A stretch of DNA of 64,000 bases from contig JANPJY010000002.1 in assembly GCA_031425735.1 (NCBI GenBank), forward strand, positions 5,692-69,691, written 5' to 3'. Both the position numbers and the translations under genes were made by a program. Below are positions 1,934 to 62,877 of the stretch, piece after piece. The notes beneath the pieces were generated by a model. It was not told where the DNA came from, ran no database searches, and was given only the letters and a program-made list of their open reading frames with translations. Positions within the stretch are counted from its first letter, which is position 1; each line of letters starts with the position of its first letter. Source of the stretch: Akkermansiaceae bacterium (lineage in GTDB: Bacteria > Verrucomicrobiota > Verrucomicrobiia > Verrucomicrobiales > Akkermansiaceae).

Positions 1934-2158
1934 TTGTTTTACGGGGTGGAAACACGGATACGGAGGAAGCGACGCGGCGGGTCGGCGTCGGCAATTTTGA
2001 CTGGGTCGGCGACGGTGACGGTCTGGCCGACGACACCAGGGTTGGTGGCGATAATTACCCAACTGTCGGGATTCGAATTTGTAGATTATGCGAGGGCTAT
2101 CGTGGGCGAGTCAGATGGATTGCCCGGAGGAAACCGGTGTTGGGCTTTGCCAGATTAG
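1934..2158 (+). pseudogene. Possible decayed fragment of an SGNH-hydrolase paralog
   Basis: The ORF tail FEFVDYARAI matches EFVDYASAI in the remnant at 6989..7138. The nucleotide string gaatttgtagattatgc is shared (2075 vs 7001). No catalytic blocks remain. Confidence 0.25.
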
Positions 2159-2627
2159 CGTGGCGAGTATCGACCGGCTGCTCCGCAGGTTCAAAATTAC
2201 GGCCGGGAAATGATCCGTACATCCAAGCCAGCCATTGCGGCCAAGGCGCTGGTTGAACTTCGTGCCCAAAGTTGGAACACCAGCGAGGTGGGTGAACCGA
2301 GGTAAACACGGTGGCCTATTGCGGCGGCGGCATGGGCAGGGATTTCATTTGGACACTCACCAGCGTGGAAACCGTAAGTATGCACTGCTGTGGTCATTTC
2401 CACCCCCGTCCAACTTTTCAACCCCCCACCCGCAAATCCCCGCATACTCCACAACACTGCTTTTGCAGGGGCACCGCTGCCCCGCATCGTTCTCGCACCA
2501 TCCGCCCTCTTCTCAGTGAACCTTTCCCGCGCCCCCTCCAACGCCTCATTCACGAAACACTTGCCTCCAAACTCTTTAAAAGTAAAGCGATCCAACCTGG
2601 CCGAAGTGTGGATGCCGTTGAGGTGCC

Positions 2628-5600
2628 TCAAGGAGCAAAGACTCGCACACGATAGAATAAACTTCCGCTTTCTGGAGGATCGAGATCCTCCAGAGTGATC
2701 ATTTGGTCGCCTGGCAAGGTTGCAGTTTGTGTGATGTTCATCCATGTGGTCGGCGCTAACAAGTTGAATGTGCGCTCAAGATGATAGACACGGCCCGCAC
2801 GGGCGGAGACTGTGACCCGATTGAGGTTGGGCAGCACGAATGGCTCAAAGCTTGAGATTGAGAAGAAATCGGAGACGTCCAGTGGATTGGTGCCCGCCTC
2901 ATACTCCCATGAGTTGATCCTGCCATCACCGTCGGGGTCCTTGTCATTGCCGATAATGTTGGGATCTGTAATACCTTCCAGATAGGCTGTCTGCCATGCC
3001 AGGCGAGCATTGATATTGACCGAAACTGACTTGACCATCACCTGGCCATTCGCATCGACAATATAGACGGTGATAAGAGCAGATCCCTGTATTCCGGCAT
3101 TCGGAGTGAAGGTAAGGATGCGGTTTGTTCCGCTTCCCGTCACAATCAAATTCTGGTTCGGGATGAGCATATTGTTCGACGAAACGGCATAGATGCCGGA
3201 GTTCGAGGAGGACAGCGTGAGTGCCAAGGCCATCGGCACACCAGGCACCGCGACATCGGCTGCCGCGACCGTGACGGAGGGTGCCCCGGCCTGTCGGAAG
3301 CGAAAAGTTCGGGTAATGGCATTGTCGCGTAGAGCCGGGATATCCTGATAAGCTGCGCTGTCGAGTCGCACGTTAATTGTCAACTGCCAAGTGCCGCTTT
3401 CAGGTTCGTAATCGGCCTGCCAGGCATTGCCGCCGCCGGTTGTCGAGTCGAGGGCGACCCAGGCAGATCCTTTGTATTCCTCCAATAATGGGCTGCGATA
3501 ATCGGAAATCCCAGTCAGGGTGATGGGCACATAACCGATTCCACCGGTAATGCTGAATTCAGCGGTATTGTTCGATGCCTGAATTTGAACCGGATAGCTT
3601 TTTTCCAGTGAGCCGGTGGACACGTTCACCGACAGATCGTTTCCGAGAGCTTCGCGCATGACCATGCTGTGCTGGTTGCCATAATTCTGCATCGCGGTGC
3701 GAAAATGTTCGTCCTCTCCATAGTAGGCACTTGCAGCCTGCCCGAAGTAAACGCGCTCAATCTCGGCTTCGATGTAGTCACCCGCCTTAAGAGCGGTCAC
3801 ACCCGGAGGCGGAACCAGATCGACGCGAGAACCACTGGCCTTAAAATAGGGGCTCACATTGTCTATCCCATTGATACGCGCCTTCCAAGAGCGAATAATG
3901 AACCCCCGTTGAGCTCCGGTTTGGCTTTTGACATATGGGTCAACACGACAATTCAGGGTGGAAAACCAGGGGAGCTTGCCCGTCAGTTGAACCGGAGTGG
4001 AGGGCCCGCCGGTGGTCCATTGAGTGGTCGGGGTCAAATTCCCAGCGTAGCCGTATGCATGCTCCGAGCCGCCATTATAGTTGTAACTATCTGCAGCCAT
4101 CTGAAAGAAAACCATCCTGGTAAAAGAAGCGTCGCCTTTCACGTCATAGCGGATTTTGTGACGGCCCCGGACGTAGTCGTTCGAGCGATAGATACTGGTG
4201 CTGTATTTGAAATCGATGAGGGAGTTGTCGGTTTCCCCCGCATAGGTGACATCCGTCAGATTGGGGCCATAACGCTGATAGTGGCTGCGGATCCGTTTAT
4301 GGTAACGTCTTACATTCCCCGCATCTTGGTAACGCAAGAAATCGCAACCGCCGTAATTCCCCGTCCATTGTTTCTGGGCTCCGGTATCACTTAAAAGGAG
4401 AATTGGGCGTGAATCGGTACCGATGGCACCGGCCAGTGCCGAATCCGGATCGTAAACCAGATTTTCTCCCCAGGCGCCGATGGCGGATTCATCCCACTGG
4501 TGGTCGCCGCCCGTGCCGCCCCAACCAACCAAACAGAGCTGGGCATGAGTGACCGCCGGTACCCCAGCATAATTTGTCCGACAATGTATGCTTCGAATTG
4601 CAGTGTGGCGTTGGGCGGCACGATCAGCATGGTCAATGCGTTGAACCACCCACCTATCCAGCGGTCGGTGGTACTTGTGTGCCAGTTCTTCGAATGCTGA
4701 ACGGGAATACCCAGTGGATTCCCATCCATATCTCTCAGAAAACAGGAATTGCCGGCTCCGTTAGGAAAGTCTCCTTTGGTGAACGCAAGCCGTGCGATTT
4801 GAGGGGAATTCGTGGTGTTTGCCAGCGTCACCCGGGTGCGCTCAATTCGGTTCGAGTCAGTGCCACTCACATTGGTGCGTAGCGGAATTTCGAAATAGCC
4901 ATAATCTAATTTGTAACTCGGAGTGAGCGTGGCGGAGGTCGGAGCCGTCTGGGACGCCGTAACGGTCAGGCTGCGGCTTTCGATTTGGTCGGCCTCGGGA
5001 AGGGTTTGCGCCACCTTGTTGGATGGATAGATGACCAAACCAACAGAACGGTCCTGATCGGCATTCCATGTGCCCGCATCGGTTTCGATAGTGACACTGG
5101 AATTGGATGGATCGACGCTAATCGAACCACTTGCGGAACTCTTGAAGACCACATAGCCACTGCCATCGTCCGCAGAGAGAGCCTGCGCCACTCCGCGGCT
5201 CGAAAGTTCGTCGAAAATACTGTTCAGATTCAAGGTCATTTTCAACTTGCCCCCAGTGACAGATGCGGTGGGGACCACCCGACAAATGATGGAGATCCGG
5301 TCGGGCCAGGCAATGATCTCGTAGCCACTTCTAAGGGTATTAAGGGCGGGAGCTGAGTTGGTTTTAATTTTCACCCAGCGCCGTTGGTAAAATTTTCCGT
5401 TATTCAGCACTTGAGTGTTTTTCGTGTTGGTCGCATTCGGCTGAATCGAGACGGTTGAACCCGATGCGGTCAAGGTGGTCGTGAGACTGGACGACGGTGC
5501 AGAAGCTGGAAAACTTTCGCTCTGCGGCTGAACCAATGCCGTAGTTTCCGGAAGCCTTTCCTCCAGCGGGAATATCGAGGTGAGACTGAGTGAACCACTA

Positions 5601-42362: not shown

Positions 42363-44267
42363 ATGTTAAGAATTTTCAGTCGCGTCGTGCTGTTCAGTCT
42401 CACTCTAGGGATGGCTGCGCATGCGTTCGATGAGGTTAAACCGAAGGACGATGCGGAATACTTGAAAAAATCAGCTGCAAAAATTGATGGGTTGATCGCG
42501 AATTTTTATCGGAACCAGAAATTATCAGTTCCGGAGATTACGGATGATGCGACGTTTTTGCGGCGGGCGTTTTTGGTGACGATAGGCCGTATTCCAACAG
42601 CTGAAGAGGCATGGGCGTTTATCGAGACTGAAGATTCCAATAAGCGGGCTGAACTGGTTGCTTACTTGATGAAATCGCCGGGTTATTCGAGTCACATGAC
42701 GAACTGGGCGTTCGATTTGTTGCGGCTTCGAGATTACCGGCAGGGAGGTCAGGGAAATAGTGAACCCTATCGCAACTGGATTCGTCAGGCAATGGATCAA
42801 AATATGCCGTGGAATGATTTTGTCGAAAAGTTGATCAGCAGCAGCGGAAATGGCTGGGATCCGAAGACGGCAGCAGTGGGTTATTACACCAGTGATCGAG
42901 GAATGCCGTTGGATAATTTATCTAACACCATGCGTGTGTTTCTTGGAACTCGAATGGAATGCGCACAATGCCATGACGATCCATTTGGTGAGACGGAGCG
43001 GAAAGATTTTTATCACTTAGCTGCCTTCACGCATGGTCAGGATCAATTAAATCAGCACTTGATGAGTAATCTTTGGGAAGAACTTCAAGAGAGTGAGGCG
43101 AGAGGGATCGATTATCAGGTGGGACAATTGTTTTGGGATAGAATTTATGGCATGTCTCTTGGGGGTGGCGGGGATGGGCGGATCCAGTTGCCATCGGACT
43201 ATCAGTACCGCGACGGCCAGCCAGGCGAGATGTTGGGCGGCAAGACACCGTTTGGGAAATCTGTTAGAACATCAGATCGTAAAGATGATGATGATGGTCG
43301 CGAAAAATTTTCTGATTGGATTACAGTGAGGACAGAGCCGCAGTTTTCATCTGTGATCGCGAACCGGCTGTGGAAGCGCGTGATGGGAAAAGGAATTCAC
43401 GAGCCGGTGGATGATTATATCGATGCTTCGAAGACGGTTTATCCTGATTTAATGACCTATCTTGCTACGCTGATACATGAGTTAGATTACGATCTTAAAG
43501 CGTTCCAGAATGTGCTGTTGCTAACGAAAACCTTTCAATTTGCGACCAATCCGAATCCATCCACGTTGGATGGCGGAGATGATTTTCATGGGCGTAAAAT
43601 TGATCGACTATCGGCGGAGCAGATTTGGGATTCTCTGATCACGCTATCGAGTGGCGATCCAGATCGTTTGCCGAAGCGAAGCGTGGATAATCGGATTTTT
43701 GTCGGGGGTCGGCCAGTTTTGGTTGGTGAGATGGATATGGTGCAGCTTTCGAATGAAGTGCTCGCGTTGAAGACAGAAGCGCAGGTGAGAAAGTATTTTA
43801 ATGAGTTTTTAGAACGCGTGAAAAAGAAAGGGGACGGTAAGAATGGTAGCGCGTCGATGATGATGGAGAACGTGCAGAAGTATGGAGCGGACTCCGTGGT
43901 GAGGGCATCTGAGTTGCCATCTCCAGCACCGCGCGAACATTTTCTCTACTTGTTTGGGGCATCAGATCGTGAGGTAGTGGAAGCGGCGAGTAAGGATCCG
44001 AATGTGGGTCAGATGCTTTCGTTGATGAATGGTTACGTGCAGCGTAATCTGGTGAATAAGCCAGAGGCGCATGTCTACAAGAGCTTGCAAGGAGTGACAT
44101 CTTCACATGAAAAAATCCGGCGATTGTATATCGCGATTTTAAGCAGGCCCCCCACCGCCCAAGAAATGGAATGGATGTTGGCAGAGGTCAATTCTGCGGG
44201 TGATCAAGCGTATCGAAACATCGTCGCGGCTTTGGTAATGTCTTCCGAGTTTGTTTTCCTACAATAA
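42363..44267 (+). CDS. DUF1549/DUF1553 domain protein (PVC-typical)
   Basis: Has a signal peptide. FLRRAFLVTIGRIPT and the GTRMECAQCHDDPF motif are present, and it is paired with a DUF1501 gene. Confidence 0.75.
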   Translation: MLRIFSRVVLFSLTLGMAAHAFDEVKPKDDAEYLKKSAAKIDGLIANFYRNQKLSVPEITDDATFLRRAFLVTIGRIPTAEEAWAFIETEDSNKRAELVAYLMKSPGYSSHMTNWAFDLLRLRDYRQGGQGNSEPYRNWIRQAMDQNMPWNDFVEKLISSSGNGWDPKTAAVGYYTSDRGMPLDNLSNTMRVFLGTRMECAQCHDDPFGETERKDFYHLAAFTHGQDQLNQHLMSNLWEELQESEARGIDYQVGQLFWDRIYGMSLGGGGDGRIQLPSDYQYRDGQPGEMLGGKTPFGKSVRTSDRKDDDDGREKFSDWITVRTEPQFSSVIANRLWKRVMGKGIHEPVDDYIDASKTVYPDLMTYLATLIHELDYDLKAFQNVLLLTKTFQFATNPNPSTLDGGDDFHGRKIDRLSAEQIWDSLITLSSGDPDRLPKRSVDNRIFVGGRPVLVGEMDMVQLSNEVLALKTEAQVRKYFNEFLERVKKKGDGKNGSASMMMENVQKYGADSVVRASELPSPAPREHFLYLFGASDREVVEAASKDPNVGQMLSLMNGYVQRNLVNKPEAHVYKSLQGVTSSHEKIRRLYIAILSRPPTAQEMEWMLAEVNSAGDQAYRNIVAALVMSSEFVFLQ

Positions 44268-44293
44268 TTTCCAATCCTTAACTCCATCCAGAA

Positions 44294-45595
44294 ATGAATA
44301 TCCATGATCTGAATCGCACCGACGAGCTGACGCGTCGGCAATTCATGTTGAATGCGGCACGGACTTATCTTGGCGTGCATCTTTTTCCAATGTTGGGTGC
44401 TTCGGTGGCGAGTGCGGCGCCGGCTGCGGTGGGTGCGGGAGGGAAAGCGAAGTATGTGATCTATCTGTATATGTCGGGTGGGATGAGCCACTTGGATACG
44501 TTTGATCCGAAGCCAAAGAAAAAAGCGGTGATGGGACCGACGGAAACCATCATGGGCAAGGCTGACGTTCCGCTTAGTGGGTATTTACCAAAAACGGCAC
44601 AGGTCACAGATAAGATGTGTATCATTAACTCGCTGAGTTCGACGCAGGGAGCGCATGAGCAGGGGACGTATGTGATGCATCACAGCTACGCACCGCGAGG
44701 AACGATACGCCATCCGGCGTTTGGTTCGTGGGTTTTGAAACTTGCTGGGCCGCTGCATCCGCAGTTGCCGGGATTTGTTGCAATCAACACGCCTCCGGCA
44801 GTGACTTCCGGTGGATTCTTCGGATCGAAATATTCTGCGGCGCCCATTGGTAAGCCCGATGAAGGTTTGTTAGATTCGAAGCGTCCTGAGGAAGTTTCGG
44901 AAGTTAATTTCGATCGTCGTTTGTCGTTGGCTGATAAGTTGAATCAGCAGTTTCACACACGCTACCCGAACCCGGATGTGAAGGCGTATGAGGAGTTATA
45001 TCGGGATGCGATTGCGTTGATGAAATCATCGGATCTTGCGGCGTTTGATTTAAACAAAGAATCTGAATCGACGCGTAATTTGTATGGATCTGGAAATTTC
45101 GCGCAGGGCTGTTTGTTGGCACGTAGATTGATCGAGCATGATGTGCGTTTTGTGGAGGTGCAATTAGGAGGATGGGACACGCATTACGATAATTTCACGG
45201 GAGTGGAAGGGCGCTGCAAAGAGTTTGATCAAGCATATGCGGCGTTGCTTACCGATTTGGAAGCACGTGGTAAGCTCAAAGATACATTGGTTGTGGTGGC
45301 AACGGAGTTTGGTAGAACTCCTGAAATTAAAGCTGAGCACAAGGAAGGTCGTGATCATCATCCGAGTGCTTTCAGTTGTGTCCTCGCAGGCGGCGGGATC
45401 AAGGGCGGGGTGAAATATGGCTTAACCGATTCTTCAGGAAATAAAGTGAAGCAGGACTTGGTGAGTGTCCAAGATTTCAATGCAACGATTGCCTATGGTT
45501 TAGGTTTGCCGCACGATTTGGTGTTGATGTCACCAACCAAGCGACCGTTCAAGATCGCTGATCAAGGAAAACCCGTCACTTCAATTTTCGGTTAG
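44294..45595 (+). CDS. DUF1501 domain protein (sulfatase-like fold) with a Tat-type signal
   Basis: Twin-arginine motif TRRQFML, then YLYMSGGMSHLDTFDPKP and GRDHHP. Confidence 0.75.
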   Translation: MNIHDLNRTDELTRRQFMLNAARTYLGVHLFPMLGASVASAAPAAVGAGGKAKYVIYLYMSGGMSHLDTFDPKPKKKAVMGPTETIMGKADVPLSGYLPKTAQVTDKMCIINSLSSTQGAHEQGTYVMHHSYAPRGTIRHPAFGSWVLKLAGPLHPQLPGFVAINTPPAVTSGGFFGSKYSAAPIGKPDEGLLDSKRPEEVSEVNFDRRLSLADKLNQQFHTRYPNPDVKAYEELYRDAIALMKSSDLAAFDLNKESESTRNLYGSGNFAQGCLLARRLIEHDVRFVEVQLGGWDTHYDNFTGVEGRCKEFDQAYAALLTDLEARGKLKDTLVVVATEFGRTPEIKAEHKEGRDHHPSAFSCVLAGGGIKGGVKYGLTDSSGNKVKQDLVSVQDFNATIAYGLGLPHDLVLMSPTKRPFKIADQGKPVTSIFG

Positions 45596-46007
45596 AAATT
45601 TGTATTTCTCGGCTGTCGTCAGGCGCATGCGTGAATTTTAACCATTGAGTGTGATCGGGAAAAAGCTCGGGAAATAAATCCGCCCACTCGCAGATGACAA
45701 TAGCTTTGTCATCAAGGTATTCATCCCAACCGAGATCAATGAGTTCGTTGGCGGATTTCAGACGATAGAAATCAAAATGATGGATGGGTGAATCTCCATC
45801 TGTGTAGGAATTGACGATGCTGAATGTGGGGCTAGTGACTTGGGTTTCTGGCTGGAAATGACGTAGGAAGCCTTTAGTCCAATGAGTTTTTCCACTACCT
45901 AAATTTCCGACCAATGCGAACACGTTACCAGGTTTCGATTGTGCGGCAAATTCTGCACCAAGATCCATCATTGCCTCTGGTGTAGACGCAGAGAGATTCG
46001 AGTTCAT
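45576..46007 (-). CDS. tsaE: tRNA t6A biosynthesis ATPase TsaE
   Basis: P-loop GNLGSGKTHWTKGF and HFDFYRL. It has an ATGA overlap with the upstream gene. Confidence 0.85.
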   Translation of the reverse strand: MNSNLSASTPEAMMDLGAEFAAQSKPGNVFALVGNLGSGKTHWTKGFLRHFQPETQVTSPTFSIVNSYTDGDSPIHHFDFYRLKSANELIDLGWDEYLDDKAIVICEWADLFPELFPDHTQWLKFTHAPDDSREIQISNRKLK

Positions 46008-46801
46008 GGATTTTTTGTATGTTTCGTGAGCACAGCTCGCACGTCACCGATGTAGACAGATGCACGTACCTCCAGAGGAATTCGATCGGCATCATCCGAA
46101 AGCCAGAAAGTAACCGGCTTTTTGAGCTTTTTGTATGCGACTAACTCGTTGGTATTCTTATTAATTTTCTGCATTGCGAAGCTAAGGCGAATGGCGTTTT
46201 TGCCTTCGTGTTTTTCTTTGGCTTCGACGCGGACTTTCAACAAGTAAGGACTTTTGAAAGGAAGGATGACCATAGTGTGTGTCTCGCCGACATCGAGTTT
46301 TTGGCTTCGGATGAAGAGGATGGCAGAGAATAAATCGCGGGTGTTTGGCTGGCTGAATATTTCTGATAAAGTCGTTTTCTTCGAACTACTTAGTTCAGTT
46401 GTGACCTCGTTGACATCGACTTTCGTTGGACTGTAATAGTTGGTCGTGATGATTTTTTCTTTGGAGTCTGCTTCCGTAGATTGAAAGTATCTAGATCTCA
46501 GAGTGTCGTATTTGATTTCCGACCAATAGCTATGATTGTAAGCAAAAAGTTTTTTCGCAACTCCTTGGCTGTAACCTGAAGATTTGATGATGAGATGCCC
46601 AGGTTTGGTGATCTTTTTTGGGGCGAACTCAATATCGAGATAACCGGCTTCAACGATGCCTTTCCAACTCAGCGAAAATTCTAACTTTGAACTTTCAATC
46701 GCTGGGTGTGTTCCCGGCGTTGAAGAAGTGATTTCCTTCATCCATGCTGGGTTTGCGTGTAGCGTGACTGAAGCGAAGATGAGCAAGAAAAGAATGCGCA
46801 T
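46004..46801 (-). CDS. Secreted protein, DUF3108-like
   Basis: Has a signal peptide. LEFSLSWKGIVEAGYLDIEF resembles DUF3108 as recalled. This is a weak family call. Confidence 0.5.
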   Translation of the reverse strand: MRILFLLIFASVTLHANPAWMKEITSSTPGTHPAIESSKLEFSLSWKGIVEAGYLDIEFAPKKITKPGHLIIKSSGYSQGVAKKLFAYNHSYWSEIKYDTLRSRYFQSTEADSKEKIITTNYYSPTKVDVNEVTTELSSSKKTTLSEIFSQPNTRDLFSAILFIRSQKLDVGETHTMVILPFKSPYLLKVRVEAKEKHEGKNAIRLSFAMQKINKNTNELVAYKKLKKPVTFWLSDDADRIPLEVRASVYIGDVRAVLTKHTKNP

Positions 46802-46816
46802 AAGAAGGATTCACTC

Positions 46817-47299
46817 TTATTCTCCGGCTGTCTGGACAGGAGTGGCGCGAGGTGGCAAGACGCCTGGTAGAGGATCTTCCGCAAAATGGAACGATTTGAC
46901 TTGGTGTTCTTCAGAAGTTGGAAGCGGCCTGAACGACTCCGAGTGGGTATCCACTCGGAAAGCGAGTTTCATCACATCACGATTGGTTTCACCCATCAAA
47001 TCACGAAGATCACGATTTTCGTTTTTGAGGTGTTTGAGTTCAGTGAGCAATTCATTGAAGAACTCTTCTTGAGTGTGAGCTTTCGCGATAGTTGCCGGCG
47101 ATCTATCTGCGTTTGCGATAGGTGCGGAAATTTTTTTATCCGGTTTTTTAATGGATGGCAAAGTTGGCTGGATACGAACTGAATTCTGAGCAAGTGGAAC
47201 CATTGCCACCAGTGACTGAACTGACCAGTAGTGGCTAAACCCAGCGCCAACCATAGCGGTTAGCAGAGTTCCACAGATAATGGGTAGGGTGGAGTTCAT
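46817..47299 (-). CDS. Single-pass membrane protein with a coiled-coil region, unknown function (operon gene E)
   Basis: N-terminal TM helix (LPIICGTLLTAMVGAGF). The heptad-like stretch is FFNELLTELKHLKNENRDLRDLM. It has an ATGA overlap with gene D. Confidence 0.6.
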   Translation of the reverse strand: MNSTLPIICGTLLTAMVGAGFSHYWSVQSLVAMVPLAQNSVRIQPTLPSIKKPDKKISAPIANADRSPATIAKAHTQEEFFNELLTELKHLKNENRDLRDLMGETNRDVMKLAFRVDTHSESFRPLPTSEEHQVKSFHFAEDPLPGVLPPRATPVQTAGE

Positions 47300-48129
47300 G
47301 GTTTTTTTGGTGGAGGAGTATTTGAAACAGGAGTTTCGGGTTTTGGCAAGGACGCAAGAAGTCTATGTAATTCGGAAAGTGCATTTCCCATTTTCAGGGA
47401 GTCTTGATCAAGTTGAGTAATAGATGATTCGAGGATATTCGCTACGGTTTGCTCCTGCTGGTAGCCTTTCTGGTCATCATATCCGGGCTCAGTAACGGCA
47501 AAGACCTCTGCGCCATCTGCGACGGGGGATAAAATGTGTGGGGTGATTTGAAGCGCGATGAAAGTTCCGGGTTTGATTTCGACTTGGCGCGAGAATGCCG
47601 GAGCTTTATCGGTGGTTTCGAGCTTCCAGCCAGTAGGTGCTTCAGTCAGTGCTTTCGTTGGGAAACTGGATTTGATCTCAATATTTTTAGGATCAATTTT
47701 GCCGGTGCCGGTTCGGATGGATTCAACTCTGACCGTAAGCGGTTCAGGTGTTTTTTCTTCGACGACAACTTCTTTGACCGTATCCTCAACCTTTATTTCT
47801 TCGGGTTTTTTTGTTTCGATTTCTTTTGGCTCAGTCGGTGTTACGACTGGCGGCTTGCCGCTGACGAGAATAGGTTTTTTGTTGTTAGATTCCTCAGGTT
47901 TTGGTTCCTCTTCAATAGCTATGGCTCGCGGCACGCTCGGTTCTGCTGGCTCACCAGGGGGAGGTAAAACCACTGTTACTTCATTAGCTTTGTTCTTTTT
48001 GGAGCGATTGAATTCATCGATGGCTTTCTGAATCTGTTCAGCATCCGGTATGGATTCTGGATTTGAATCTTGAGCAGGAACCGAGGAAATCAGTCCAAAC
48101 GCTAGGCTTAGGATATAGAATGATTTCAT
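47296..48129 (-). CDS. Secreted protein with a Pro/Glu/Lys-rich linker, unknown function (operon gene D)
   Basis: Signal peptide MKSFYILSLAFGLISSVPAQ. It has ATGA overlaps at both ends. Confidence 0.6.
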   Translation of the reverse strand: MKSFYILSLAFGLISSVPAQDSNPESIPDAEQIQKAIDEFNRSKKNKANEVTVVLPPPGEPAEPSVPRAIAIEEEPKPEESNNKKPILVSGKPPVVTPTEPKEIETKKPEEIKVEDTVKEVVVEEKTPEPLTVRVESIRTGTGKIDPKNIEIKSSFPTKALTEAPTGWKLETTDKAPAFSRQVEIKPGTFIALQITPHILSPVADGAEVFAVTEPGYDDQKGYQQEQTVANILESSITQLDQDSLKMGNALSELHRLLASLPKPETPVSNTPPPKKP

Positions 48130-48872
48130 GGTGATTCTTCGTTGCGTTGAATTTTAACCGCTTCCGAGTCAGATGCATGAGCCATGCGAGATGATTTCAG
48201 AAGGTTAGAGGAAATAGATGGACTGTCCGCACGGAGAACGTGATTTGGCACAGATGTGTCCATGAGTTTATTCCAATCTTCCAAGATAAGTTGACCCTCG
48301 TCACGAAGAGTGCGGGATTTTTCTTGGTACGCTTCGAGGCGTTGGAGCAACACTCGTGCTTGAGCAGCATTGTCTTGGGACCAACGAAGATTACGGCTTT
48401 TGTAGAGAACCGGGACATCGATGACGATGCGGTGAATATCTCCGCTCGTGCTTTCCGCATCGAGAATGTGCTGCATGCGGATATTGGTTTCTTCGAAGCC
48501 AGATGCAAGCGGTGCGGGAGGGAGTTGATGCTTAGGTGCAGCTGAATGGCTGTTAGTTTTTACACCGGGTGTTTTATTCGTGGGAGCACTTTGTTTGGTG
48601 ACCAAATTTTCTGGAGAGGAGATGGGTTGACTTGAAGCAACCGAATTTTTCGAGTCAGTAGAGTTGTTGTAGACAACGGGCTTGGTGATATAAGCAAAAC
48701 AAAACACTGCTGCTACTGCCGTGCTGGCGCAGAGCAGCCATGGGTAAAGCCGTTGCGTTTTCGTGCTGCGCCGGTTCGAATAAGAAAAAGAATCCACTCT
48801 TGGAGTCAGATCCAGAGTGATATCGAGAGGCCGTCCTTCCCTACGGGGCTCTTGGCTTGAGCTAGGTTTCAT
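48126..48872 (-). CDS. Single-pass membrane protein, unknown function (operon gene C)
   Basis: Basic N-terminus, one TM helix (WLLCASTAVAAVFCFAYI) and a C-terminal domain of about 170 aa. It has ATGA overlaps at both ends. Confidence 0.6.
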   Translation of the reverse strand: MKPSSSQEPRREGRPLDITLDLTPRVDSFSYSNRRSTKTQRLYPWLLCASTAVAAVFCFAYITKPVVYNNSTDSKNSVASSQPISSPENLVTKQSAPTNKTPGVKTNSHSAAPKHQLPPAPLASGFEETNIRMQHILDAESTSGDIHRIVIDVPVLYKSRNLRWSQDNAAQARVLLQRLEAYQEKSRTLRDEGQLILEDWNKLMDTSVPNHVLRADSPSISSNLLKSSRMAHASDSEAVKIQRNEESP

Positions 48873-49318
48873 GGTTTCTTGGAGGATTCTGAATCTTTCG
48901 GAACTGCTATGACCGCGTGGCTCACGATGGTTTGATCGGATACGCCCGGGAAAGTGGTGAGTGTGAAGGATTCTTGGGATAGCCTTAAGTGGCGAAGGGT
49001 GCCCCCTGAGTTGCTAGATGCTTGGATTCCAGGGATGACTTCAATGGCTCCGGATTCCGCACGCTGGCGGCTTATTCCATCAGAACGATAGATGTCGAAG
49101 GAGGTGTAGGCTTCTTTTTCATCTTCCATGAGATTGATACGAATCGTTACTCCATCGGTGTATACTTTGAAAGCGACCGATTTCATGGGAATGGGCGTGA
49201 TTCCAGATTCCGTAACCTTGAAATGTGACTGTAAAAGAAAATCGCCAATATGACGAAACTCAGTTGAGTGAGCTGCAACTGAAAGAAAGCACAGAAGAGT
49301 GAGGATCAGCGCTTTCAT
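48869..49318 (-). CDS. Small secreted protein, unknown function (operon gene B)
   Basis: Start placed at MKALILTLLCFLSVAAHS, which forms an ATGA overlap with the pseudopilin stop. The listed ORF extends to 49333. Confidence 0.55.
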   Translation of the reverse strand: MKALILTLLCFLSVAAHSTEFRHIGDFLLQSHFKVTESGITPIPMKSVAFKVYTDGVTIRINLMEDEKEAYTSFDIYRSDGISRQRAESGAIEVIPGIQASSNSGGTLRHLRLSQESFTLTTFPGVSDQTIVSHAVIAVPKDSESSKKP

Positions 49319-49713
49319 TGGCCTACGTCCCATAAAGAATCGAGTGGTTGTCCTGAAGGATCATAGACTCCGCCTGCGCCATCGTCGATGACGGGAGGAT
49401 TGACGTTTACTTTGATCGTCAGGGTTTCGCCTTCAAGTGATTCGACGGTCGGAAGGGCCGTTGCACGGTTTGTGAGATAAGGAATGATATTTGCTGCCGT
49501 GATGTCGGCGACCGCAACCGTTGGGTTATCTGCTAAGTATAAGCGCTGTGCTGAGTAAACGTTACGTAGATGCTCTGATGCGGTGCGTCCTGCCTGCCAA
49601 ATACCGTATTGTTTGGTTACAAATAGTCCGGTGCCCATAAGTGTTAAGAGCACCAAAATCACCACCGTCATTTCAAGAAGGGTGAAGCCAGATTTTGGAT
49701 TTCCTTTTGTCAT
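49315..49713 (-). CDS. Prepilin-type N-terminal cleavage/methylation domain protein (pseudopilin, operon gene A)
   Basis: The N-terminus MTKGNPKSGFTLLEMTVVILVLL has the canonical G/FTLLE motif with Glu+5. Confidence 0.8.
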   Translation of the reverse strand: MTKGNPKSGFTLLEMTVVILVLLTLMGTGLFVTKQYGIWQAGRTASEHLRNVYSAQRLYLADNPTVAVADITAANIIPYLTNRATALPTVESLEGETLTIKVNVNPPVIDDGAGGVYDPSGQPLDSLWDVGQ

Positions 49714-49758
49714 AAAATTTATTTAACGCGCATTGATCATCTTGAAAAGCGTAAAATT

Positions 49759-50763
49759 TTAAAAATTTATAGATGAGGGGGATAATTTTTTAAGAAAAAT
49801 CACTTTTCCGTGCCGATTTGGCTGATTCAACCTAGCTAGCGCTGATGAAAAATCACTGAGTTCGAAGGTGCTGTCGACAGTTTGGGTGAGTTTACCGGAG
49901 CTGACGAATTCGGCGAGTTCGGCGTAGGTTTGGTTTAAAGTCAGCGGGTCACTTTCGCGGATCCATTGGGTGACCCAAAGGCCGCGGAGGCGGATATCGT
50001 TGAAAATCAGGGGGCCATTCGGGACGGTTAGAGGCTTTTTCGCCATCGCGCCGTAGGTGATTAGGGTGCCGCTGGGGCCGAGCAATTTCATCATGCGGAG
50101 GGCGCTTTCACCACCGACTGCGTTGAAAGCGAGCTTGGCTGTGTCTTGTCCCAGCGCCGCAACCGCTGACGCATATCCAGCGGGTGAGTCCTCGAAAACC
50201 TCCGTGGCACCGATGTTTTTCAGCTCGGAGATGAGAGAAATATTTCTCAAAAAGCAAAGCGTCCGGATGCCTAAATGCTTAGCGAGTTGGATGGTGCATT
50301 GGCCTACCCCGGAATTCGCGGCGTTTAGGGCGACCCAATCGCCAGCCTGTAATGTTTCGAAGCGCGTCAGCAAAAGGAAGGCCGTGGCTGGATTGACTTT
50401 CAACATGGCGGCTTGGAGGGGATCGATTCCACTCGGCAGTCGTATCAGGTTTTGCTCATGGGTGATGGCGTGTTCCGCCCAGCCGCCGATTCTGGAAATG
50501 GGCATCACGGTGTCGCCGGGGGAAAAGAGTTCCGACTGGCTTTCGATAACTGTTGCAACGCACTCGATACCAGCGGTGGCGGGCAGTTCGGGTTTCACTC
50601 CGTAGGTTCCCTCGATCAAATTGAGATCGGCGGGATTGATAGGGCTGGCTATGATTTCAAGCAGGACTTCACCGTTTTTCAATGGCGGCAGGGTGAATGC
50701 CTCCAGATTCAATACGGAGCTGGGGTTTCCGAATTGGCTGAAGACTAGATGCCGACTTTTCAT
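49759..50763 (-). CDS. MDR-family NAD(P)H oxidoreductase (2-enoyl thioester reductase / quinone oxidoreductase-like)
   Basis: ASPINPADLNLIEGTYG and LPATAGIECVA, with the nucleotide-binding motif ANSGVGQ. Confidence 0.75.
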   Translation of the reverse strand: MKSRHLVFSQFGNPSSVLNLEAFTLPPLKNGEVLLEIIASPINPADLNLIEGTYGVKPELPATAGIECVATVIESQSELFSPGDTVMPISRIGGWAEHAITHEQNLIRLPSGIDPLQAAMLKVNPATAFLLLTRFETLQAGDWVALNAANSGVGQCTIQLAKHLGIRTLCFLRNISLISELKNIGATEVFEDSPAGYASAVAALGQDTAKLAFNAVGGESALRMMKLLGPSGTLITYGAMAKKPLTVPNGPLIFNDIRLRGLWVTQWIRESDPLTLNQTYAELAEFVSSGKLTQTVDSTFELSDFSSALARLNQPNRHGKVIFLKKLSPSSINF

Positions 50764-59457: not shown

Positions 59458-59472
59458 TTGTTAGCGCCTACT

Positions 59473-59541
59473 GGAGAGCCGCGCCTCCGGCCGGCTTCTT
59501 CCGTGATAGCAAAAATGCCGGCCAGAGACCGACTCTCCAAT
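59473..59541. repeat. Two REP-like copies upstream of the RAYT gene
   Basis: ggagagccgcgcctccggccggctt (59473-59497) is the reverse complement, at 24/25, of the downstream copy. gccggccagagaccgactctccaat (59517-59541) is in direct orientation. Confidence 0.65.
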
Positions 59542-59550
59542 CCCCCCCTT

Positions 59551-60156
59551 ATGCCCGAATTCTTTCATCCTGATCTACCCACAAATGTAAAAGTTCATAA
59601 TCTGCCTCACTGGCAACAAGGTGATGCATGGCTTTTTCTCACATGGCGGCTAGCTGACTCGTTACCGCTAATTAAAATTAGAGAATGGCAGCACCAAAGA
59701 GAGATTTTTTTCAAATTTTATCCCGAACCGTGGACCGATTATGTTTTTAAAGAGTATCGAAAACAGTTCACTGATGAGATTGAAGAGTGGTTGGATCGCG
59801 GTATTGGCGAGTGTCATTTGAAGTATCGTGAGGTTCGAGAAATCGTTTCTTCGGCTTTGTTGCATTTCGATGGTGAGCGCTATGACCTGAATTGTTTTGT
59901 GATCATGCCAAATCATGTTCATCTGCTGCTTCGTCCCTTGGAGCCTCATAAACTTTCCGACATCGTTAAAACCATGAAGAGCTTCAGTGCTCGTGAGGTG
60001 AACAAAATTTTAAAACGGGAAGGCTCATTGTGGCAGAGAGACTATTATGATCGGTTGATCCGATCAGCTAAGCAATTTTCGTGGGTGAGAAATTATATTG
60101 AGAAGAACCCTAAGAATTTTCATCCGGATACATTCACGCTTTATATGAAGCCATGA
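59551..60156 (+). mobile_element. REP-associated tyrosine transposase (RAYT, IS200/IS605 Y1 family)
   Basis: The HUH motif region is FVIMPNHVHLLLRP and the catalytic Tyr region is LWQRDYYDRLIR. The gene is flanked by REP hairpins. Confidence 0.8.
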
Positions 60157-60185
60157 TGAGACTATTCGTTGGCTGCCCGAATGCA

Positions 60186-60213
60186 AAGCCGGCCGGAGGC
60201 ACGGCTCTCCAAT
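60186..60213. repeat. REP-like copy downstream of the RAYT gene
   Basis: aagccggccggaggcacggctctccaat, ending 1 nt before the rhomboid ATG. Confidence 0.65.
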
Positions 60214-61083
60214 ATGAAACCAGAATTACAAGAAGACGAATGGATCGACGTCGGGACTTATCCCACTCTGGATGAGGCTCAGGAACGTGCATTGGTGGCA
60301 CTTTCGATGGGGGAGGCGATACGGGTGGAGCATGGCGACCAACCGGGTGAGTTCGATCTCCAGGTGGAACCAGATGCGGCGGTGAAAATTTCTGAAGAGA
60401 TTCGCCAATACGAGGCGGAGTCGGAAGTTTTTAGATATCCGGCCATTGTCCCGTCGAACTGGGCGAAGTATCCTGCGGGCTGGAGTTATTATCTGATTTG
60501 GGCGTTGGTGCTGATAGCGGTTTTTTACCTTCAACAAAGCAATCTCTCTCTGGCGGACCGCGCGGCATCATCCAGCATCGGTTTGATGAAAAACGGCGAA
60601 AAATGGTGGCGTCCCTTCACGGCTCTCTTTCTGCACGCGGATCTCGGACATATTTTGGGTAATCTCTCCAGCGGTGCGTTGTTCGGCATGCTAGTCTCGA
60701 AATCGATCGGTCCGTTGAAAGCTTGGGCGATGATTCTCCTTTCAGGAACGGTGGGTAACGCGATCACCTCCGTGCTCACATATCCGGAGTTGTTTACGTC
60801 TATCGGCGCATCCACAGCCGTTTTCGGGGCACTTGGGATTTTGTCTGGAATCGGGTTGGTGGAGAATCTGCGCGAAAAAGTTAGCTTGCCATGGGTGCGA
60901 GTGCTGGCACCACTTTTGGCGGGATTCGTTTTACTTGGTTGGCTGGGTGGCGCGGCGCCGGGTTCCCAAACAGATGTCCTCGGCCACGTTTTCGGTTTCT
61001 CTACTGGGGTAATAGCTGGAATCGTTTGCCGGTATTTTGTAACAAGCGAGACGTTGCAAGAGTCCCCGAAAAAGTCTAGCTAG
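60214..61083 (+). CDS. Rhomboid-family intramembrane serine protease
   Basis: FLHADLGHILGN and the catalytic GASTAVFG. The start was trimmed to MKPELQ, because the listed ORF begins inside the REP. Confidence 0.8.
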   Translation: MKPELQEDEWIDVGTYPTLDEAQERALVALSMGEAIRVEHGDQPGEFDLQVEPDAAVKISEEIRQYEAESEVFRYPAIVPSNWAKYPAGWSYYLIWALVLIAVFYLQQSNLSLADRAASSSIGLMKNGEKWWRPFTALFLHADLGHILGNLSSGALFGMLVSKSIGPLKAWAMILLSGTVGNAITSVLTYPELFTSIGASTAVFGALGILSGIGLVENLREKVSLPWVRVLAPLLAGFVLLGWLGGAAPGSQTDVLGHVFGFSTGVIAGIVCRYFVTSETLQESPKKSS

Positions 61084-62250: not shown

Positions 62251-62877
62251 ATGGATAACCTCGCAATCTCTGTCACTGATACCGCATTCAAATTTATGGA
62301 TAAAGGCGGCATTTTCATGTATCCACTGCTGCTTTGTTCCATCACCGGATTGACCGCCATTGGATTCAAATTTCTTGCGCTTTCCCGTAAGCGGATTGTT
62401 CCGGCGCAACTCGCGGAGATCCTTGAAAATAACAGCGGAGATATACAGGCAGTCGGCCGAGAACTTGCAAATTATGAAAGCGCGCTTTCTCGACTCGCTT
62501 CAGTCAGCCTCAAGCATCAGCACAAAGATATCCAACATATTACCCATGCGGTCGAAGTTGTTGCTCGTGAGGAAGTCGTAAAAATGCACTCCGGAATGGG
62601 CGTGCTCGATGTTGTCATCACCGTTGCTCCACTGCTCGGGTTGCTGGGAACAGCCTCCGGACTCGTCACCATTTTCGATGGACTCGGAGAAACAACTGAC
62701 TATCTCGTCATCGCACGAGGTATTGCAGAAGCCCTTATTACAACCATTTCAGGTCTTGTCATCGCCGTCCCATGCGTCGTGGCACATAGTTATTTCATGC
62801 GTCGTATCGAACTCCTCACTGCTCGCATGGAAGCAGTCTTATCCGACTTTGTCGCCGCTTGTTCGAATTCCAAATAG
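62251..62877 (+). CDS. exbB: MotA/TolQ/ExbB proton-channel protein
   Basis: Three TM helices, with APLLGLLGTASGL and EALITTISGLVIAVP. Confidence 0.85.
   Translation: MDNLAISVTDTAFKFMDKGGIFMYPLLLCSITGLTAIGFKFLALSRKRIVPAQLAEILENNSGDIQAVGRELANYESALSRLASVSLKHQHKDIQHITHAVEVVAREEVVKMHSGMGVLDVVITVAPLLGLLGTASGLVTIFDGLGETTDYLVIARGIAEALITTISGLVIAVPCVVAHSYFMRRIELLTARMEAVLSDFVAACSNSK

Follow-up and report, generated by a model that had tools for sequence, protein, structure and literature searches.

Type IV filament machines rank with the most widespread nanomachines of bacteria, and it is their accessory parts that set their function. What, then, does a gene for a filament subunit do when the rest of the machine is not encoded around it? 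This question is raised by a 64-kb stretch of DNA from an Akkermansiaceae bacterium (assembly GCA_031425735.1, contig JANPJY010000002.1), referred to here, at its full length, as the window. The window carries a run of seven genes, labeled A to G in transcription order, in which a gene for a type IV pilin-like subunit (A) is followed by four genes for envelope proteins of orphan families (B to E), a DUF3108 gene (F) and tsaE (G) (Table 1). The original prediction for this DNA, made from its letters alone, proposed a lone pseudopilin and, as a candidate, an undescribed envelope complex around it. As outlined here, related loci give another answer. Judging by gene content, the conserved unit is a 13-gene type IV filament operon of Luteolibacter-, Haloferula- and Rubritalea-type Verrucomicrobiales, and A to E are likely to be the pilin-proximal module of this machine, detached by one rearrangement in the clade to which the window belongs. 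The locus is less odd than a lone pseudopilin first looked: the type IV filament system to which it belongs is divergent and has four envelope proteins that are orphans and coupled to the pilin, and it is not categorically new.

Genes A to E as a conserved and coupled unit

The ATGA-coupled run of seven genes was recovered in the window at the positions originally given for it. All seven are minus-strand open reading frames (ORFs), the A/B, B/C, C/D, D/E and F/G junctions are ATGA overlaps, five in all, and E and F are separated by a gap of 15 nt. Relatives of C were collected in a scan of one genome per species, which yielded 141 stretches, 80 of which were compared as loci. Additional loci came from metagenome contigs scanned with an alignment of the platform protein introduced below (80 metagenome loci), and 148 loci were considered overall. 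Gene order was determined by tblastn with all window proteins, and ATGA overlaps were scored in the first 81 related loci.

The order A-B-C-D-E is identical in every one of the 80 genome loci, as far as the contigs reach. In the overall set, the five genes are complete and colinear in 103 of 148 loci, with 42 cut by a contig end and three without D, so that the co-occurrence proposed as a check of the gene set is indeed found. Counted junction by junction, the overlap is kept in 63 of 74 scorable loci (A/B), 67 of 75 (B/C), 65 of 70 (C/D) and 67 of 69 (D/E). Most scorable loci (63 to 67) thus keep the ATGA overlap at each of the four junctions within the set. This is not due to chance, and the tight translational coupling that had been proposed within A to E is borne out. 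Long invariant stretches are also present in the alignments of all four orphan proteins. At the level of sequence, B to E are genuine genes under selection and A to E are one unit. The seven-gene unit originally proposed holds for this conserved and coupled A to E set, whereas F proved to be optional and G to be linked in the window's clade only.

Pfam and NCBIfam matches agree with the first assignment of A as a prepilin-type protein, of F as a DUF3108-like protein and of G as TsaE. The sequence of A is MTKGNPKSG followed by FTLLEMTVVILVLL, with the motif KSG/FTLLEM, and matches N_methyl of Pfam (E 8.2e-5, above the cutoff) and TIGR02532 (E 4.7e-4). Its residue E+5 is invariant across 26 orthologues, and the match of the A-family profile to type IV pilins of solved structure in the PDB extends past the N-terminal helix (PilE1 8pfb, E 2.4e-6; geopilin; PilA). 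A therefore carries the class III (prepilin) signal by which a fiber subunit of type IV filaments is recognized. It is the sole ORF with a prepilin motif in the window, and a scan of six loci revealed no second such ORF within 10 kb on either side of the matched gene.

A separate observation concerns residues 63-126 of A (window positions 49336-49527), which show weak matches to Levivirus/Qbeta coat proteins (Pfam Levi_coat, E 0.068; PDB profile matches 8feh_D, E 4.6e-5, and 1qbe, E 0.09). Levivirus-type phages use pili as receptors. The coat-protein resemblance of this C-terminal half is probably a chance beta-sheet similarity.

The two genes at the other end of the run are of a different standing. 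F covers the full model of DUF3108 (PF11306; E 9.8e-20, 71.7 bits against a cutoff of 26), and a phmmer search of F against the PDB gave noise only. A DUF3108 gene adjoins A to E in about 50 of the 80 genome loci (Luteolibacter-type genomes) and is missing after E in Rubritalea marina, in the distant contig L088 and in a good number of metagenome loci. The gene is a frequent neighbor of A to E, but a dispensable one outside the core. G matches TsaE (PF02367; E 1.2e-34, 119.5 bits against 26.6) and TIGR00150 (E 8.4e-32, 109.8 bits against 60.1) and carries the P-loop GNLGSGKT. The ATGA overlap that joins tsaE to F occurs only in the clade of the window (about 20 loci); in the other clade, a YkuD-type gene follows F.

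A 13-gene type IV filament operon in relatives

In L084, a 381-kb Joint Genome Institute (JGI) contig with a distant homologue of C, A to E end a co-directional array and are followed by a DUF3108 gene and a YkuD-type gene. The order of this array is conserved: u590, a GspM-like gene (u178), u241, a secretin, u204, a GspE/PilB-type ATPase, a GspF/PilC-type platform protein, p137, A, B, C, D and E. By tblastn, A is immediately preceded by the same eight-gene block in about 57 of the 80 genome loci (one representative genome per species), and the same 13-gene order was found in cultured Rubritalea marina (L087) and in L088, a distant JGI contig, which were reached through remote homologues of D. 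Most of the 80 metagenome loci have this linked order as well. Where the T2SSF gene and p137 are both complete, A comes directly after the block in 117 of 125 loci. Contrary to the original claim, the pseudopilin is thus not alone, since in these relatives A to E are the 3' end of an operon with secretin, ATPase and platform genes.

In L084, the secretin matches Secretin_N and Secretin (PF00263, E 1e-32) and has PilQ as its best secretin model (E 1.4e-38), the ATPase matches T2SSE (PF00437, E 4e-82) with PilB (6e-94) and GspE (8e-87) as best models, and the platform protein matches T2SSF (PF00482, E 3.6e-36) and GspF (1e-36). Against the equivalog cutoffs, the scores are 292 versus 630 bits for GspE, 127 versus 424 for GspF and 128 versus 351 for GspD. 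The product of u178 aligns over its full length to GspM (NF040576; E 7.3e-6), at 25.8 bits against a curated cutoff of 60. Because all equivalog cutoffs are missed, none of the curated types is assigned: the system is in the type IV filament superfamily but in none of its curated types. The products of u590, u241, u204 and p137 have no match in Pfam or NCBIfam. The first is a 590-aa bitopic protein and u241 encodes a signal-peptide protein just before the secretin; PDB profile searches with these two were negative, with no detectable similarity to GspL, PilM/N or PilP. By gene position, u590 may be GspL/PilMN-like and u241 PilP/GspC-like. The Pfam-annotated flanks of L082, L084, L087, L088 and L169 contain no prepilin peptidase (Peptidase A24), the gene for which is often unlinked in known type IV filament systems.

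Two side observations concern ATPases of this family. The ATPase of Rubritalea marina (L087, 5044-6741) has a weak MshEN hit on record; MshEN is the cyclic di-GMP (c-di-GMP)-binding N-terminal domain of MshE, and the hit hints at c-di-GMP control of the Rubritalea machine. In L169, a 160-kb contig, a second T2SSE-family ATPase of 399 aa (2135-3334), the size of a PilT-type retraction ATPase, is encoded about 1.1 kb upstream of the machine block, which on this contig is of the orphan type described below. If this ATPase belongs to the system, the fiber could be retractile.

Split of the operon in the clade of the window

About 22 loci, including the window, depart from the linked order. They have a quinone-oxidoreductase-like gene upstream of A-E-F, tsaE downstream and no machine gene within 10 kb. 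In the window, the flanks searched around A to E measure 46 kb and 14 kb, and the original statement that the window holds no ATPase, platform protein or secretin was confirmed by tblastn (no T2SSE, T2SSF or secretin homologue at E 1e-5). No prepilin peptidase is present among the ten scanned window ORFs of 230-315 aa.

The history of this arrangement was approached with neighbor-joining trees on short concatenates, without support values. In the tree of B+C+D+E, the loci with the split arrangement are one clade nested among linked lineages. The reciprocal arrangement exists too. Seven metagenome contigs contain the u590-to-p137 block without A to E although the contig runs on for 4-10 kb, and an eighth ends too soon; in the tree of T2SSF+p137, these eight orphan-block contigs group in a single clade that is nested within the 117 linked loci. 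New downstream genes are common to six of the seven (L097, L113, L115, L123, L135 and L161), in which they follow p137. In L097 (11595-13620), these encode a 160-aa protein with a VLFVCTGNTCRSPMAE motif, presumably low-molecular-weight phosphatase/ArsC-like, then, on the other strand, a conserved 195-aa protein, and then a 279-aa membrane protein that presumably resembles CdaA. The three genes after p137 in the orphan blocks are the other scar of the rearrangement.

The two clades are connected by tetranucleotide composition. Among the ten nearest neighbors of L113 and of L115, nine are split-clade loci including the window (hypergeometric p of about 1e-6), and the same holds for seven of ten in L123 and six of ten in L169. 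GC content by itself does not separate the classes of loci, and blastn of orphan-block loci against split-clade loci found no flanks in common. One metagenome assembly, ERZ25039505, contains one orphan block and two split-type contigs. This was considered as proof of a common genome and rejected, as a control shows that the accession is metagenome-wide. The C and D proteins of the window map only to a 5.8-kb Logan contig, and of two genes at the window's edges one has no record and the other is found on a 3-kb contig.

On these trees, the arrangement of the window is a single derived split. Because the tetranucleotide signature of the orphan-block clade is closest to that of the window's clade, the window organism probably encodes the secretin, the ATPase and the platform protein at another locus, and a reciprocal orphan-block clade is the pattern expected if a single event split the two halves and both were retained. 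In the proposed scenario, one event in the ancestor of the clade would have moved A to E and the DUF3108 gene between the quinone-oxidoreductase-like gene and tsaE, and the remaining eight genes (u590 to p137) would have stayed at a second locus. The linkage of the run to tsaE, which was correctly noticed at first and left unexplained, is accounted for as a rearrangement junction, being found in the window's clade only.

The split loci bear on two other explanations. According to the first, A to E are an autonomous pseudopilus-associated envelope complex with no dedicated ATPase, platform or secretin. This agrees with the lack of any machine gene within at least 10 kb in the window and about 22 related loci and with a set that is intact, and conserved in its coupling, in the split loci. 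However, linkage to machine genes is the ancestral and majority state, the orphan-block clade is reciprocal and shares the compositional signature of the window's clade, and it is established that prepilin-type proteins of type IV filaments require a peptidase, an ATPase and a platform to assemble. A self-standing complex, as the original prediction can be read, is not supported by these data, and we consider it very improbable. The second explanation, a decaying, functionless remnant in the window's clade, has in its favor that the module is separated from the machine genes, but all five ORFs are intact in every split-clade locus, GFTLLEM and the ATGA overlaps are retained, and identities within the clade extend from about 45% to 97%, as purifying selection predicts. 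Decay is the least probable of all the explanations weighed here.

The orphan proteins B to E

That B to E have no recognizable domains, as noted from the letters alone, was corroborated at every level searched. None of the four matches Pfam or NCBIfam even at E up to 1, the family profiles of B, C and D retrieve zero PDB chains at E up to 10 and that of E retrieves coiled-coil noise only, and a scan of every member of the B and D families (106 members for D) against Pfam gave no consistent match. When the family profiles of A, C, D and E were compared with one another, no hidden paralogy emerged: C and E resemble each other over 23 coiled-coil residues only, and the profile of E is not similar to that of the pilin A (probability 0.2%). 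The topologies described in the original prediction were found again, with signal-peptide-like N-termini in B and D and a single transmembrane (TM) segment each in C and E. None of the four proteins has a class III signal (G/A-F-T-L-x-E), and B and D carry ordinary Sec-type signal peptides.

B is the most conserved of the four, with 61% mean column identity and 28 invariant columns in its alignment; the mature protein has about 130 aa and is probably beta-rich. One 3.9-kb ENA contig (P0121) encodes a 426-aa in-frame fusion of B and C, which may be a hint of B-C interaction (Rosetta stone) or a 1-nt assembly or sequencing error at the ATGA junction. A fusion of this type would have an awkward topology.

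C has 268 homologues, all annotated as hypothetical, and the named ones are from Akkermansiaceae, Luteolibacter or unclassified Verrucomicrobiota. At its N-terminus, C has a conserved basic stretch in the cytoplasm (SYSxANRR), which is followed by a nearly invariant TM helix at 42-62. The AlphaFold2 model of C (m2b9b0acfcf80; 120 homologues) contains this helix, disorder at 63-133, a beta-hairpin at 134-152, a 42-residue helix at 166-207 with a predicted local distance difference test (pLDDT) score of about 90, and a short helix at 222-229. The model of D (m14c05dc4eeac; 106 diverse homologues; mean pLDDT 77, above 90 in the C-terminal part) consists of the signal peptide, a helix at 30-46, a disordered Pro/Glu/Lys-rich spacer at 47-130, a five-strand beta element at 133-202 and a 31-residue C-terminal helix at 229-259 (pLDDT above 95). 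Foldseek searches against the PDB found nothing significant for either model (top E 1.1 for C and 1.2 for D). The D family comprises 142 representatives in 1.84 billion proteins, and among the members sampled, the only one whose source is reliably named comes from Rubritalea marina (Verrucomicrobiota). One D-family cluster member bears a 'Crocinitomicaceae' label from a metagenome-assembled genome (MAG), a label that is unconfirmed.

E begins with a conserved TM segment and, after a variable linker, has a short coiled coil (ETNRDVMKLxFRVDTHSESFRPLP) and the motif GVLPPRAxPV at its C-terminus; its sequence has space for no more than a short helix. In C, D and E alike, a flexible linker precedes a long amphipathic helix, which lies within the protein or at its end. 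Both TM helices, that of C and that of E, are highly conserved in the alignments. This suggests that they pack specifically against the pilin stem or the platform; a conserved cytoplasmic tail is found in C alone.

The topologies of B to E had been said to recall PilN/PilO/PilP or GspL/M. Two structural identities were tried for C and D and rejected: a PilN/PilO/GspL/GspM-type fold, as the models have no ferredoxin-like domain and Foldseek gives no such match, and a pilin-like one, as the models show no pilin-like structure. In the comparison with the homology region (HR) domain of PilP/GspC, a small beta-sandwich of the periplasm that binds the N0 domain of the secretin, B and D show no sequence similarity and the D model has no PDB match. 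The likeness to alignment subunits was accordingly not found in the predicted folds of C and D, and the profile and structure searches that had been suggested as a check (Foldseek for C and D) match B to E to no known assembly protein of type II secretion systems (T2SS) or type IV pili.

Three loci may inform on how these proteins work together. In L120 (11562-13223), L157 (11521-13191) and L156, there is no D, and what is left of C is its N-terminus, TM helix and linker; A, B and E are kept. L120 lies in a different part of the T2SSF+p137 tree than L156 and L157, and the co-loss of D and of the hairpin-helix domain of C probably happened twice. This joint loss in separate regions of the tree suggests that D works as a pair with the C-terminal domain of C.

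Possible roles of B to E

In the proposed mechanism, A would be the subunit of a fiber (pseudopilus or pilus), processed by a prepilin peptidase encoded elsewhere and polymerized by the ATPase and the platform protein beneath the secretin. Translational coupling would ensure that B to E are made in fixed proportion to A. C and E would reside in the inner membrane and B and D in the periplasm, where the hairpin-plus-helix domain of C and the beta-plus-helix domain of D would act as a pair. B to E would together form an accessory complex at the base or tip of the fiber that starts, docks or guides the filament, and this location at the fiber base or tip is the most likely one.

A more specific role is suggested by the position of the genes, in the slot of gspH-I-J-K: B to E could functionally replace the minor (pseudo)pilin initiation complex as a non-pilin priming or tip complex for the A fiber. 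The genes that come after the single pilin gene, in translational coupling with it, are exactly four, and the scans of the six loci and of the window revealed no further ORF with a prepilin motif. The type IV filaments that have been studied rely on an initiation complex of the PilI/J/K type (PMC13533445). Non-pilin proteins can donate strands to such a complex, and the T2SS of Chlamydiae likewise has no recognizable minor pilins (PMC6668835). However, B to E have no class III signal, and B and D have Sec-type signal peptides instead; the E profile is unlike that of pilins, the C and D models are not pilin-like, and minor pilins could be encoded elsewhere. Moreover, there are lineages that retain the rest without D and half of C, which implies that at least this pair is not essential for priming. 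On balance, such a replacement seems unlikely. Its strongest form, in which a machine of the lineage of Planctomycetes, Verrucomicrobia and Chlamydiae (PVC) uses B to E in place of the near-universal GspH-K/PilI-J-K priming complex, is slightly less likely again. If true, it would mean that a fiber can be nucleated from Sec-exported and membrane-anchored proteins without class III signals.

The topologies of B to E, two bitopic coiled-coil proteins and two periplasmic ones, would also fit an alignment subcomplex of inner membrane and periplasm that is functionally equivalent to PilN/O/P or GspC/L/M. So would the highly conserved TM helices of C and E, and with u590 and u241 showing no detectable similarity to GspL, PilM/N or PilP, those roles are not firmly filled by the upstream genes. 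Yet the upstream block already includes a GspM-like protein, and the 590-aa bitopic and the signal-peptide protein precede the secretin, which is the usual position of alignment genes. The C and D models have no ferredoxin-like fold, and profile searches of the PDB, which holds alignment proteins of the known systems, were empty. We regard an alignment role as doubtful, about as doubtful as the strong form of priming by non-pilin proteins.

Comparison with known systems

Like the T2SS (Gsp/Eps/Xcp), the relatives encode in one operon a secretin together with an ATPase of the GspE type and a platform of the GspF type, a bitopic protein that is GspM-like, and a prepilin-type subunit that, at about 130 aa, has the size of GspG; four coupled genes come after that of the major subunit, as gspH-K do. 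Unlike in the T2SS, there is no recognizable GspC, GspL, GspH, GspI, GspJ or GspK, the equivalog cutoffs of GspE, GspF and GspD are missed, the four genes after the subunit have no prepilin signals, and the locus has no peptidase. The features of a canonical T2SS (equivalog GspD/E/F, recognizable GspC/L/M and minor pseudopilins after gspG) are thus not those of this operon. With type IVa pili and the mannose-sensitive hemagglutinin (MSHA) pilus, the system shares PilB as best ATPase model, PilQ as best secretin model and the weak MshEN match in the Rubritalea ATPase. The organization in a single locus, in which a large bitopic, a small bitopic and a periplasmic protein come before the secretin, recalls the mshI-J-K-L order of the MSHA operon. 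In contrast to these pili, it has no recognizable PilM, PilN, PilP, PilT, MshM or MshN, all scores are below the curated cutoffs and there is a single pilin gene.

The nearest analogy is the 'generic' T2SS of Chlamydiae, also members of the PVC superphylum, which is reported without recognizable minor pilins and GspL/M (PMC6668835). In both cases a recognizable core is combined with unrecognizable partners. A system from the same GTDB family is the Amuc_1098-1102 cluster of Akkermansia muciniphila, a type IV pilus-like secretin cluster with hypothetical partners; its secretin, Amuc_1098, has 907 aa and a TPR region at the N-terminus (PMC4960237). Unlike Amuc_1098, the secretin described here has about 600 aa, and it matches the Amuc_1098 family model over its last 74 residues only, at 51 bits against a cutoff of 750. 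The profiles of B to E matched no chain in the PDB, which presumably includes Amuc_1100. The Akkermansia cluster is a different system.

Small envelope proteins encoded right after a pilin gene are also found in Pseudomonas aeruginosa, in which the tfpW, tfpX, tfpY and tfpZ genes directly follow, and are specific to, particular pilA alleles and are needed for efficient assembly. Homology to these is not expected, and the difference is that here there are four such proteins, all of them translationally coupled and conserved across an order-level group. In the full-text literature, no description of this operon was found for Verrucomicrobia, Luteolibacter or Rubritalea.

Neighboring genes in the window

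Table 1. Positions in the window of the genes of the run and of their neighbors
Feature	Positions	Strand	Length and description
A	49315-49713	minus	132 aa; prepilin-type (type IV pilin-like) subunit
B	48869-49318	minus	149 aa counted from the ATGA start; signal-peptide periplasmic protein, orphan family
C	48126-48872	minus	248 aa; bitopic inner-membrane protein, orphan family
D	47296-48129	minus	277 aa; secreted or periplasmic, orphan family
E	46817-47299	minus	160 aa; N-terminally anchored inner-membrane protein, orphan family
F	46004-46801	minus	265 aa; DUF3108 protein
G	45576-46007	minus	143 aa; TsaE, housekeeping ATPase subunit for t6A tRNA modification
Quinone-oxidoreductase-like gene (zinc-ADH family)	49759-50763	minus	Pfam ADH_zinc_N + ADH_N; upstream of A
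PSCyt2/PSD1 (DUF1549/DUF1553-type) + DUF1501 gene pair	42363-45595		just downstream of tsaE
IS200-like Y1 transposase	59458-60156		
Rhomboid protease	60169-61083		
MotA/ExbB	62251-62877		

Only 45 nt (49714-49758) separate the quinone-oxidoreductase-like gene from A, and their adjacency is kept throughout the split clade. The gene precedes A in split-clade loci alone and would mark the new 5' junction of the relocated module. Because it ends 45 nt from A, the transcription unit may be longer than seven genes. The promoter of A to G may sit within or upstream of the same gene; a scan of the region for promoter and terminator consensus sequences gave no more matches than shuffled controls. The PSCyt2/PSD1 and DUF1501 gene pair downstream of tsaE occurs in the same position in Luteolibacter sp. 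AS25. Among the more distant ORFs of the window are those for an IS200-like Y1 transposase, a rhomboid protease and MotA/ExbB (Table 1), and on the matching Logan contig L085 an ExbD gene comes after the ExbB gene.

Concluding remarks

The reading of A to E as the detached module of a 13-gene machine has to be weighed against several points that speak the other way. No ATPase, platform, secretin or peptidase is encoded in the 64-kb window or within 10 kb of A to E in any split-clade locus. The two halves are not placed in one assembled genome, the shared ERZ accession being at metagenome level, and in a search with the L084 ATPase none of the best 120 matches listed (at least 87% identity) is on the large split-clade contigs. 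Regarding the machine itself, family models recognize just five of the 13 proteins, and all equivalog cutoffs are far above the scores of the ATPase, the platform and the secretin, so that the machine type (T2SS, type IVa pilus or MSHA-like) is not fixed by the scores. With respect to B to E, structure models cover C and D only, the model of C has a low overall pLDDT of 64, and the roles proposed follow from position, topology, conservation and co-loss, not from homology or experiment.

In all, the analysis defines a 13-gene system in more than 100 species of the Verrucomicrobiales, which are abundant polysaccharide degraders of freshwater, soil and marine environments. Eight of its 13 proteins, including the four made with the pilin, are without known family or fold. 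The machine may serve secretion or form adhesive pili. The absence of ATPase, platform and secretin genes near a pilin gene can reflect a lineage-specific split of an operon and not a new kind of system. The system raises the question of which role four invariant, pilin-coupled envelope proteins have in a machine without recognizable minor pilins, and the intact operon is available in cultured Rubritalea marina.

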